From positions 32,001-96,000 of the IMG/VR virus record IMGVR_UViG_3300030376_003987: DNA of 64,000 bases; one strand, written 5' to 3'. Position 1 is the stretch's first letter; every line of letters begins with the position of its first letter. The notes under the pieces were generated by a model, which searched no databases, was not told where the DNA came from, and saw only the letters and a list, made by a program, of their open reading frames with translations. The DNA comes from a virus. Its lineage: Duplodnaviria; Caudoviricetes. The position numbers and the translations under genes were made by a program. This document shows, piece after piece, positions 35,151 through 36,751 of this stretch.

Positions 35151-35579
35151 TTACGGACAGAGTGTAGCTGCTTGAACTACTCCAGTAGAACTAACTTGTA
35201 CATTCCAATCCTCACCGTCAGTGCTTGCAACTCTATGATAAGATCCATCTCCAACGAAAGGAGTGTTTCCTGCAGAATCAAGATAGATTACATCGTTCAC
35301 TGCTATTACAGGATCACCTGCTAGTTGTAAATACACGGTAGTGTCTAGTGTTTCAGTACATGCGTCAGCTACATCAGAAGTTGAAGAAATCTGACCTGCT
35401 GGTAATGCTGCAGTTGTGGTTGTTGTAGTTGTAGGGTTGCAACATTCATATGCTACAATCTCCTGCCAATTTCCAACCTTAGGTTTGTTCCTGCGTAATA
35501 CAAGAGAACCTGCTACTACACGCCCAGATCCATCGAATCTCACGTATGCCTTTAACGGTCTTTTGTTAATGCTTCCCAT
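35151..35579 (-). CDS. Putative virion accessory protein with a poly-Thr linker
   Basis: LKAYVRFDGSGRVVAGSL N-domain, CCNPTTTTTTT linker, small Cys-flanked beta C-domain. Confidence 0.7.
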   Translation of the reverse strand: MGSINKRPLKAYVRFDGSGRVVAGSLVLRRNKPKVGNWQEIVAYECCNPTTTTTTTAALPAGQISSTSDVADACTETLDTTVYLQLAGDPVIAVNDVIYLDSAGNTPFVGDGSYHRVASTDGEDWNVQVSSTGVVQAATLCP

Positions 35580-35616
35580 TTTAATTTGTTTTAAAGGGTT
35601 AGTAATTTAGGTTATA

Positions 35617-36555
35617 TTAAAATTCAGATACTAGTTTCTCAAAAGTTTTTGAGTTCTTAGTATTTATTATCTCTTCTATGTAGATTTTTGTTATAGACTT
35701 ATCATCTACATAGTCGTAATTGTAATTAAAAGGGTTGTTATTTATAAAATGCCCTTTGTAAAACTTATCTTTATGATCTGGTACAACACCAGCCATGTGT
35801 AAGATTTTATGGGTTTCCCACATCTCTATAGAATCTGTGGCCCATCTAAAGTCTAGTTCTTTTACAATCTTAGTCTCAATGTTTCGTTTCCATAATAACC
35901 ATAGAACGCACCACATCTCTGATGTCCAAGCTTGTATTGGAGGATCGTAATCATTGTATGTTCTATGACTTCTCATAATATCATATAACTTAGGTGATTG
36001 CACCTCAACTTCTTTGAAGTAATCTAGTAATATGTTATGAGGAATTCCTTTATAGTATAACTGAGCACCTCCAGATTCATCATTTTTCTCAACAATTGTG
36101 TCAAAAGAAACACCAATATAGTTACACATATCTTTTACAATCTCATCACCTTTTGTTTTAAGGTATTGATATCCTAGATAACCTTTAGTGTCACTGCAGT
36201 AGACAACATTATCTTCTTTAAACAAACTGTAGTCAATAGGTTCTCTAAATATAACATCTGAATCTATTAGAAGTAGATCTTGCTGCTTAGTATCATGTTG
36301 TAGATATTTAACAACTCCATGTATCTTTAGTGTAGGTATGTAATGTTTTTGCTTTCTGGTATCTTCAAAGATGAAAACATTTTCAGGAAATGCTTCTTTA
36401 AATTTATTTAAAAACTCTGAAGCTTGTCTTCCAGCCTTGTATAAAAACACTGCACGATGGTCTTTTAATAATCCCATCTTCTCTAGATTGTGGAACTGTA
36501 CTAAGTTTTGCCAGTGAAAATATGGTTCATCTGGTTGTGAACATATGCTGATCAT
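35617..36555 (-). CDS. Glycosyltransferase resembling plant peptidyl-Ser galactosyltransferase / Hyp arabinosyltransferase (GT96/GT95-like)
   Basis: YFHWQ near the N-terminus, IDSDVIF DxD motif, WTSEMW (cf. YFDWQ...DxD...WISEMY), ILHMAG. Confidence 0.65.
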   Translation of the reverse strand: MISICSQPDEPYFHWQNLVQFHNLEKMGLLKDHRAVFLYKAGRQASEFLNKFKEAFPENVFIFEDTRKQKHYIPTLKIHGVVKYLQHDTKQQDLLLIDSDVIFREPIDYSLFKEDNVVYCSDTKGYLGYQYLKTKGDEIVKDMCNYIGVSFDTIVEKNDESGGAQLYYKGIPHNILLDYFKEVEVQSPKLYDIMRSHRTYNDYDPPIQAWTSEMWCVLWLLWKRNIETKIVKELDFRWATDSIEMWETHKILHMAGVVPDHKDKFYKGHFINNNPFNYNYDYVDDKSITKIYIEEIINTKNSKTFEKLVSEF

Positions 36556-36585
36556 AATATGTAGTTATTGGTTTTTTAATTTCTC

Positions 36586-36723
36586 TTACGGAGTAGTGGT
36601 AGTGGTTGTGGTGGTAGGGTTGTTCTTACCTGTTACTTGAATCAGTCTTTCCAACTGTTTCGAGATTTGCCACAATAAGTTTTCTGTTGCACTCCAGCCG
36701 ATTTGTTTATTTGGTATAGGCAT
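36586..36723 (-). CDS. 45-aa protein with a poly-Thr tail
   Basis: MPIPNKQIGWSATENLLWQISKQLERLIQVTGKNNPTTTTTTTTP*; below the ORF-track cutoff. Confidence 0.7.
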   Translation of the reverse strand: MPIPNKQIGWSATENLLWQISKQLERLIQVTGKNNPTTTTTTTTP

Positions 36724-36743
36724 GATGTATGTTTTTTGTAATA

Positions 36744-36751
36744 CAAAAATA
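36744..36751 (-). promoter_or_regulatory. -7 box TATTTTTG for the poly-Thr/GT operon
   Basis: caaaaata on + strand, about 20 nt upstream of ATG 36723. Confidence 0.5.

Follow-up and report, generated by a model that had tools for sequence, protein, structure and literature searches.

The plant and algal peptide O-glycosyltransferases HPAT (family GT95) and SGT1/SRGT1 (family GT96) consist of DxD domains of about 300 residues that place a sugar onto the hydroxyl of hydroxyproline (Hyp) or Ser in repetitive peptides rich in Pro and Ser; both glycogenin and UGGT act on proteins, glycogenin directly on protein hydroxyls. To our knowledge, glycosylation of virions by phage enzymes has been demonstrated only for a few mycobacteriophages. 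In these, phage transferases of Che8 (gp108-110) and Corndog (gp38) glycosylate the phages' own capsid and tail-tube subunits at their C-termini (Freeman et al. 2023, Cell Host Microbe, as cited in PMC12619734 and PMC12363180), and protection of the virions against the binding of antibodies has been reported (PMC12363180). The subject of the present work is a three-gene unit of a marine phage, in which the gene for a 312-residue glycosyltransferase lies between those of two small proteins that carry runs of threonine (poly-Thr tracts). It was found in a stretch of 64,000 nucleotides (the window) that corresponds to positions 32,001 to 96,000 of IMG/VR virus record IMGVR_UViG_3300030376_003987, a record of 112,378 bp that is approximately 98% complete and has a G+C content of 35%. 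Judged from its sequence context, the enzyme is probably a poly-Thr-directed phage O-glycosyltransferase, for which the poly-Thr tracts serve as acceptor tags.

Mycobacteriophage virion glycosylation, as those reports describe it, is the closest known system, and the comparison is instructive in both directions. In relatives of the phage studied here, tail-tube and capsid proteins encoded next to the enzyme gene have poly-Thr C-terminal tails, which would be candidate acceptors in a corresponding position. Accessory domain types also recur: gp108 of Che8 combines GT2 with Methyltransf_24 and gp110 carries GT25, and similar fusions are found in PHROG 4417, the family of the 312-residue enzyme (GT25 and Methyltransf_24 below threshold). 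However, the initiating transferases are of another, unrelated family: the PHROG 4417 family profile gives no match on gp108-110 at E≤10. Moreover, the Che8 capsid and tail-tube proteins end in NKTGS and QYSDGS, without poly-Thr, and the Che8 transferase genes are located at the far right end of the genome, away from the genes of their acceptors.

The 312-residue enzyme and its family

The unit comprises three open reading frames (ORFs) in the same, minus-strand orientation within 36723-35151, with products of 45, 312 and 142 amino acids. These ORFs, their motifs and their tracts lie where a preliminary description of the locus had placed them, as follows:

36586-36723, minus strand: ORF of the 45-residue protein, which ends in NNPTTTTTTTTP; a conserved N-terminal part is followed by NNP, T8 and P
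36592-36615, minus strand: poly-Thr tract T8, residues 37-44 of the 45-residue protein, proposed acceptor (codons ACC ACC ACA ACC ACT ACC ACT ACT)
35617-36555, minus strand: 312-residue predicted GT-A glycosyltransferase of the PHROG 4417 family (profile match, structural model and structural neighbours)
36256-36264, minus strand: DSD (D98-S-D100), the DxD motif of the 312-residue enzyme (alignment and model)
35797-35799, minus strand: H253 of the 312-residue enzyme, within LHMAG, invariant in the alignment
35151-35579, minus strand: 142-residue two-domain protein, with an N-domain (residues 1-47) that ends in YECC, a linker of NP plus T7, and a C-terminal beta domain
35412-35432, minus strand: poly-Thr tract T7, residues 50-56 of the 142-residue protein, proposed acceptor (six-frame tract search)

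The enzyme carries the motifs PYFHWQ (residues 11-16), DSD (98-100) and WTSEMW (210-215). Its sequence matches phrog_4417 over the full length (E=2.2e-68; residues 1-300 align with positions 1-292 of the 293 in the profile), a PHROG without assigned function; no Pfam family is matched at E≤1 or E≤10, nor is any NCBIfam model, and a sequence-profile search of the PDB yields solely chance matches, in which an NSGG stretch is paired with TALE repeats. The fold was examined in an AlphaFold2 (AF2) model, obtained with a predicted local distance difference test score (pLDDT) of 96.5 and a predicted template modelling score of 0.92. Foldseek returns 235 matches to this model at E≤0.001, and its neighbours, with E values from 7e-8 to 1e-6, include WbbM (7e-8), glycogenin (3e-7) and the catalytic domain of UGGT. 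A separate structure alignment against PDB representatives gives 83 chains at Z≥8, the top rows of which are all GT-A enzymes: glycogenin (3u2t, Z 14.3, root-mean-square deviation 3.6, 226 residues aligned), LgtC (1g9r, 14.2) and UGGT (6fsn, 13.7), with lower matches to the Skp1 alpha-galactosyltransferase (6mw8, 13.6), LARGE1 (13.4), an Anaerococcus GT8 protein (3tzt, 13.2), GlyE (12.8) and the capsid-glycosylating enzyme of PBCV-1 (2p6w, 11.7, 188 aligned). Two of these listed neighbours, 6mw8 and 2p6w, act on protein substrates. The latter, A64R of the chlorovirus PBCV-1, is akin to the present enzyme in being a virus-encoded GT-A protein that glycosylates the virus's own capsid, but its source is a giant virus of eukaryotes, its score is below those of the GT8 matches, and it is not known to have a poly-Thr acceptor. 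A viral structure library lists uncharacterised phage proteins first, followed by giant-virus transferases of the GT8 type.

In an alignment of 58 homologs, D98, D100, H253, A255 and G256 are invariant. In the model, the DSD motif is flanked by strands E94-96 and E101-103, and H253 is, by analogy with GT8 enzymes, a candidate third metal ligand. On the strength of its model, the 312-residue protein is taken to be a GT-A, DxD-type glycosyltransferase of predicted activity, with a shape nearest to that of the retaining GT8/GT24 enzymes; the GT-A fold and the invariant D98 and D100 bear out the DxD glycosyltransferase that the preliminary description had recognised in the middle gene. The likeness to glycogenin and LgtC (GT8) and to UGGT (GT24) extends to a whole-chain structural match, the DxD motif and a late conserved His, but, as identity is 8-10%, the enzyme is not a member of GT8/GT24 by sequence, and the Pfam model for GT8 (PF01501, Glyco_transf_8) finds no match in it at E≤10.

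The same description had likened the enzyme to the plant-type HPAT and SRGT1 families (GT95 and GT96), and for HPAT the outcome is different. The Pfam model PF23452 has no match in the 312-residue enzyme at E≤10, nor in the whole phage genome translated in six frames at E≤10, a result that is weakly informative, as control genomes also gave none. Among 104 family members a single sub-threshold match was obtained (13.8 bits, against a cut-off of 23.9); it is collinear with the profile, residues 184-260 falling on positions 171-246 of 307, and spans WT(S/A)EMW...LHMAG. In the ESM Atlas, HPAT is assigned to 10% of the members of one look-alike cluster, and DUF7164 occurs in another. HPAT/GT95 membership was rejected on the Pfam tests, and the label appears to be wrong or at best very remote. 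Points of resemblance are the HPAT and SGT1 acceptors, which we take to be analogous to poly-Thr, and the weak kinship signals from PF23452 and the ESM Atlas; on the side of the differences, 103 of the 104 relatives have no match to the model and none reaches its cut-off, the proposed acceptor is Thr rather than Hyp or Ser, and the 312-residue enzyme is phage-encoded and predicted to be soluble, unlike HPAT and SGT1, which are Golgi membrane proteins.

The enzyme gene is present in a single copy in the genome, and its family is large. An exhaustive profile search yields 1006 representative clusters at E≤1e-3, of which 577 remain at the stricter E≤1e-30; the 150 matches listed are all close family members, with a worst E value of 3e-73. 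Relatives are encoded in no fewer than 561 viral-contig stretches and in 77 cultured phage records, in the latter every one at less than 60% identity, with hosts that include Lactobacillus, Enterococcus, Staphylococcus, Lactococcus, Clostridium, Chryseobacterium and others; none of the 77 is a Mycobacterium phage. The domain scan of the family, which covered 25 longer members, detects fusions to GT2 (two), Glyco_transf_7C (two), the PF11397 GlcNAc transferase (two), O-FucT (one) and radical SAM plus SPASM (one), while four members show sub-threshold domains (GT25 in two, Methyltransf_24 in one, F5/8 type C in one) and 14 are without any match. It is of note that a GenBank note on ORF095 of Enterococcus phage 9183 (locus L289, 3001-3870) mentions a 'PqqD family peptide modification chaperone' as homologous; together with the radical SAM plus SPASM fusion (member P0192), it hints at a link to peptide-maturation systems.

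Poly-Thr proteins beside the enzyme and across viral loci

The 45-residue ORF had been described as hidden, which holds for the gene track that was used at the time, from which it is absent, but not for public collections, in which gene callers report the exact 45-residue protein on 29 contigs. In nine related loci its length is kept at 44-55 residues, each version ends in poly-Thr, and the N-terminal part is conserved despite many replacements. Pairwise ratios of nonsynonymous to synonymous change (pN/pS) over the first 33 codons range from 0.11 to 0.40, with pS values of up to 0.81 that bring synonymous sites close to saturation. The ORF is under purifying selection and, by this sequence measure, behaves as a translated gene, in agreement with the expectation that it is translated. 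The sequence pattern of its N-terminal part suggests an amphipathic helix.

The 142-residue protein, in which CCNPTTTTTTT occupies residues 46-56, has 887 homologs at E≤0.01; marine surveys contributed many of them, and one bears the label Virus NIOZ-UU157. Residues 1-47 are highly conserved, and C46 and C47 are invariant among 40 aligned homologs. In 94 of the 120 homologs listed, a T-rich run of at least five residues starts at residue 47-53; among the same 120, a further 24 have CCN(P/S)TTT only, and two have neither form. The residues that precede the tract are CCNP, CCYP or CCSP in this family and QN, CC or CCV in relatives of the 45-residue protein, and a place of NP in a glycosylation sequon, as had been proposed, is hence not supported. 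The Cys pair before the tract (35440-35445, minus strand, in the window) also occurs in some relatives of the 45-residue protein; its candidate roles are a disulfide, a metal site or an S-linked sugar. The AF2 model of the 142-residue protein (pLDDT 86) consists of two beta domains joined by the tract as a linker, with low confidence only at residues 41-60. As no PDB structure matches it convincingly (best Z 4.5), no function can be assigned to the protein from its fold. In the viral library its C-domain structurally resembles domains of a 417-residue NIOZ-UU157 protein and of a Cellulophaga phage protein. BLASTP gives a marginal C-domain match to a 422-residue poly-Thr protein of the same genome (E=0.041) and no match to the poly-Thr protein of a Chryseobacterium phage; the notion of an N-terminal domain common to the 142-residue protein and the proteins of Chryseobacterium phage MA9V-3 was dropped on the BLASTP results. 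A modelled complex of the enzyme with residues 1-62 of the 142-residue protein (score 0.02, mark 0.32) counts neither way.

In 76 of 79 related loci, the next gene downstream of that of the enzyme encodes an N-domain protein, usually at a distance of 6-42 bp. Ten viral contigs (L312, L329, L334, L336, L337, L348, L355, L360, L368 and L369) carry N-domain ORFs of the '...ECC' type without a tract, at 9-1536 bp from the enzyme. On three others (L203, L206 and L207), a divergent family member of 339 residues replaces the 312-residue enzyme between the same two small ORFs, which gives the impression that only the enzyme of the cassette was exchanged.

Within the six reading frames of the window, T-rich runs of at least six residues occur only twice, once on each side of the enzyme gene. 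Given a Thr frequency of 7.1% over 41,221 residues, runs of seven are expected only some 4e-4 times (hand calculation), and the tracts are therefore beyond chance; since ACC, ACA and ACT codons are mixed, they are not slippage repeats of the DNA either. The same genome holds 27 more tracts of at least six residues outside the window, in five long minus-strand ORFs of 2212 residues (PHROG 'virion structural protein'), 1104, 640 and 422 residues, and a 222-residue fragment at the contig end, and a 380-residue protein ends in TCITTTTTAAA. The genome's tracts are usually preceded by Pro (NCP, PNP, IPP, VAP). As these five larger virion-module proteins carry tracts too, and the enzyme has a single gene copy, the first idea of a self-contained cassette does not hold; the unit is one part of a genome-wide poly-Thr system. 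The 422-residue protein (L282, 10801-12069, minus strand) holds 13 tracts of 6-8 T/S residues in two blocks, with a spacing of about 9-10 residues within blocks and VAP/AA separators of 2-3 residues; from this sequence it would be a mucin-like repeat protein of the structural module.

The association between enzyme and tracts was examined in 80 viral loci centred on homologs of the enzyme, with up to 6 kb on each side, and in 80 control loci selected around relatives of the endolysin encoded in the window; 71 of these controls are without a homolog. Thr-rich tracts are found in 71 of the 80 homolog loci (295 tracts in 946 kb, almost always on the enzyme strand) as compared to 11 of the 71 controls (12 tracts in 684 kb), where 11 of the 12 are mixed S/T runs of 6-7 residues and one is of 9; pure runs of at least six Thr are present in 68 of the 80 and in none of the 71, respectively. 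The nominal Fisher p value for the comparison of homolog and control loci is 9e-21, which is not a true probability, as the loci are related. The presence of a tract persists upon dereplication by enzyme identity (45 of 51 clusters at 90%, 20 of 23 at 70% and 6 of 6 at 50%). The remaining nine of the 80 endolysin-centred loci do carry a homolog, and poly-Thr ORFs flank it in all nine, on both sides in seven, upstream only in L205 and downstream only in L209. As for the nine homolog loci without a tract, four are cut by a contig end, two have several T5 runs in adjacent ORFs, and three are real exceptions. The preliminary description had called for a check of whether poly-Thr ORFs flank the enzyme family in other phages, and these counts show that they do; comparative genomics also lends strong support to its proposed pairing of an enzyme with putative substrates.

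A reverse test covered 80 of 118 loci chosen by a degenerate poly-Thr DNA pattern, 59 of which have an in-frame run of at least eight Thr. A homolog is present in four of these 59 loci, each time directly adjacent, and in none of the 21 loci without an in-frame tract. Poly-Thr is much commoner than the enzyme, and the enzyme is rarely found without poly-Thr.

Nine cultured phages of Bacillota and Bacteroidota hosts (plus one recorded on Arcanobacterium) carry the gene beside or near tail or capsid proteins or poly-Thr-repeat proteins. A poly-Thr stretch closes the major tail proteins of phiFL1A, 1706, SA2, TPWB06, phiCTP1, iLp84 and 9183. In phiFL1A, in Lactococcus phage 1706 and in Clostridium phage phiCTP1, the enzyme gene is directly 3' of the tail-tube gene, whose product has the tail ...TTTTTSTTTTTTSSTTTTTTTQASSK in phiFL1A and ...TTTTTTTTTTHHD in 1706. 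In Staphylococcus phage SA2 and phage TPWB06, whose tail-tube proteins end in T8-T9 followed by P, one short poly-Thr ORF stands between the two genes and overlaps the end of the tail-tube gene. The enzyme gene follows a small protein of five poly-Thr repeats in Lacticaseibacillus phage iLp84, the capsid and tail-tube proteins of which both end in TTTTTTTSK, and it follows two poly-Thr-repeat proteins in Lactobacillus myovirus Semele and in Chryseobacterium phage MA9V-3. The sister Enterococcus phages phiFL3A and phiFL4A, which are without a homolog, have no T/S run of at least five residues in their whole genomes. Poly-Thr-repeat ORFs overlap the 3' end of another gene in a different frame at the major tail gene of SA2 (L285, 2667-2930) and TPWB06 (L290, 2720-2926) and, unannotated, at the capsid gene of Enterococcus phage 9183 (L289, 2770-2889). 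Such overlapping ORFs may be programmed-frameshift extensions, which would place a long poly-Thr tail on a fraction of the subunits.

The unit within the phage genome

The three-gene unit is situated inside a minus-strand late block, where it neighbours genes for lysis and for tail fibres. An endolysin (Amidase_2) is encoded upstream of it together with holin-like and spanin-like ORFs, and collagen-like tail-fibre genes are close by. The remaining features of interest are:

35107-35140, minus strand: terminator-like hairpin with T-run that closes the three-gene unit (hairpin scan)
36744-36751, minus strand: TATTTTTG, which fits TAnnTTTG, 21 nt 5' of the ATG of the 45-residue protein
39102-42560, plus strand: 1152-residue fusion of a methyltransferase, a GT-B domain (Glycos_transf_1) and an Aah/TibC-type O-heptosyltransferase (Pfam; TIGR04414)
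16726-17598, plus strand: NAD-dependent sugar-nucleotide epimerase/dehydratase (PF01370, 4e-48), a possible supplier of the donor sugar

Both ends of the unit had been assigned control signals. The terminator stands: after the stop codon of the 142-residue ORF, a 10-bp stem (35140-35117) with six G-C pairs and a loop of four is followed by TTTTTTAAAT, with its run of seven T, and the region holds four terminator-like sites as compared to an expected 1.0 ± 1.0. The case of the proposed -7 box is more nuanced. The motif is present at a plausible position upstream of the ATG and matches the Bacteroidota -7 consensus TAnnTTTG, but there are 89 such matches in the window as compared to 76.9 ± 9.3 in shuffled sequences, a number that 12 of 100 shuffles reach. 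Since TAnnTTTG is thus not enriched window-wide, TATTTTTG alone is weak evidence of a promoter; a scan for sigma-70-type promoters gave 13 sites, without excess over the 12.7 in shuffles. Marine RNA-library contigs from three studies, 90-99% identical to the window, span all three genes; they reveal neither RNA ends nor strand, and stretches left uncovered in runs X6 and X8 are uninformative. A near-identity DNA search of the cultured phage collection gave no match to the window.

The 1152-residue protein matches TIGR04414 over residues 826-1150 (1e-77, 261.6 bits, with a cut-off of 200), and a homolog of protein heptosyltransferases of the Aah/TibC autotransporter type is unusual in a phage. 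The best NCBIfam match of the epimerase is GalE (3.7e-47), followed by ADP-heptose 6-epimerase (6e-34), all of them below equivalog cut-offs. The epimerase and the fusion protein indicate that this phage has further means of handling glycans, among them a second candidate enzyme for protein glycosylation.

Other parts of the window are also of note. Directly downstream of the three-gene unit (33276-34485, minus strand) there are four small, extremely Lys-rich proteins of 73-103 residues, two of which match DUF6321/PHROG 10346/727. Collagen-like tail-fibre proteins of 444 and 2411 residues, followed by ORFs of 1601 and approximately 2500 residues almost without family matches, occupy 42544-51116 (minus strand), and an early/replication block (18953-22822, plus strand) contains rIIA- and rIIB-like genes and then an HNH endonuclease.

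Candidate acceptors and their significance

The proposed mechanism is the following. The 312-residue protein would be a soluble, metal-dependent GT-A glycosyltransferase of the large, mostly phage-borne PHROG 4417 family that, late in infection, transfers the sugar of a nucleotide-sugar to the Thr hydroxyls of poly-Thr tracts in phage proteins, each tract acting as a genetically encoded glycosylation tag. The nearest acceptors would be the small proteins whose genes flank that of the enzyme, presumably both located on the virion, and further acceptors would be the poly-Thr linkers and tails of larger virion-module proteins encoded elsewhere in the genome. Other transferase and methyltransferase domains of the phage could extend or decorate the first sugar, the outcome being a mucin-like glycan coat on parts of the virion.

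Several observations weigh against this proposal. The viral loci compared are not phylogenetically independent, and synteny is no proof of an enzyme-substrate relation. In three of the 80 homolog loci there is no T-run within 6 kb of the enzyme gene, some N-domain ORFs that adjoin the enzyme have no poly-Thr after their Cys pair, and 55 of the 59 poly-Thr loci have no homolog in the DNA examined, which indicates that poly-Thr does not need the enzyme nearby. The 1152-residue fusion is a second candidate protein glycosyltransferase of the same phage. In the two deepest RNA-library runs, contigs also span the whole 6.5-kb region that was compared, and because all of it is covered, DNA carry-over is a possible source of these contigs. 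Finally, no paper was found that describes the PHROG 4417 family or poly-Thr tails as phage glycosylation sites, in a literature search that covered few subscription journals; PMC10763512 and PMC12014285 proved to be irrelevant.

A rather unlikely alternative separates the enzyme from the tracts: the former would act on a host surface glycan, on phage DNA or on a small molecule, and the latter would be plain flexible linkers of the same phage lineages. Many phage glycosyltransferases modify DNA or the host serotype, according to one report (PMC12619734), and the scarcity of the enzyme near poly-Thr at large would fit such linkers, as would the AF2 model of the 142-residue protein, with its tract as a low-confidence inter-domain linker. 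Mere linkers would not, however, explain why, in siphoviruses and myoviruses that are unrelated, the gene is part of a head or tail morphogenesis module and comes immediately after a tail-tube or capsid gene, why the adjacency persists across host phyla and after dereplication, or why sister phages without the gene are without any tracts; moreover, the tracts in cultured phages are C-terminal tails, and as to a target of another kind, the 312-residue enzyme matches neither a Pfam family nor any PHROG of assigned function.

The remaining alternatives accept a peptide as the substrate. The TibC/Aah-type domain of the 1152-residue protein might glycosylate the tracts first, with the 312-residue enzyme extending that glycan, or the two enzymes might have different acceptors. 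That domain passes the cut-off of TIGR04414, a family named protein O-glycosyltransferase, its gene heads the divergent late block at a distance of 2.4 kb, and the epimerase also matches ADP-heptose 6-epimerase, at a level below cut-off. Across phages, however, the link to poly-Thr tracks the 312-residue family, and the annotation around the enzyme gene in the nine cultured phage loci, to which the check was confined, includes no heptosyltransferase-like gene; furthermore, protein hydroxyls are the direct target of glycogenin and other enzymes of the GT8 type. This alternative seems improbable. Least probable is a maturation cassette of the type that yields glycopeptides or ribosomally synthesized and post-translationally modified peptides, in which the small proteins would be precursors with leader-like N-terminal parts and the product a released glycopeptide or a regulator. 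Its appeal derives from the architecture of both small proteins, where a conserved N-terminal part precedes a variable, modified-looking tail, from the invariant Cys-Cys before the tract, from the radical SAM plus SPASM fusion and from the PqqD homology noted for phage 9183. Against it, the presumed acceptors in Bacillota phages are plainly tail-tube and capsid proteins, the fusion was found in only one of the 25 members scanned, and the C-domain of the 142-residue protein structurally resembles domains of larger NIOZ-UU157 and Cellulophaga phage proteins, an argument limited by the marginal BLASTP match to the genome's own 422-residue protein.

If the poly-Thr tract is indeed the acceptor, the idea can be taken further, in a form that may as easily be wrong as right. 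PHROG 4417 would be a new glycosyltransferase family, maybe a distant cousin of GT8 and of the plant peptide O-glycosyltransferases, that reads poly-Thr as a portable O-glycosylation tag, with which phages of at least two bacterial phyla would mark tail tubes, capsids, fibres and small decoration proteins for a mucin-like coat. The small proteins on both flanks would then have the carrying of glycans as their special task, with their conserved N-terminal parts as anchors to the virion or to the enzyme.

Should poly-Thr-directed glycosylation prove true, a number of consequences would follow. A simple rule, a poly-Thr tract beside a PHROG 4417 gene, would predict glycosylated phage proteins, the masses and peptides of which phage proteomics would miss, and it would bear on the reading of disordered C-terminal tails in cryo-electron microscopy, as well as on host recognition and on stability in mucus or sea water. 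The enzyme and its tag could also provide a compact pair for the O-glycosylation of proteins in bacteria, and the proposal is directly testable in well-known laboratory phages. Phage virion glycosylation would be far more widespread than is presently appreciated, as members of the family occur in phages whose bacterial hosts are from dairy, gut, skin and marine settings, and these data suggest a widespread, so far undescribed phage route to sugar-coated particles.

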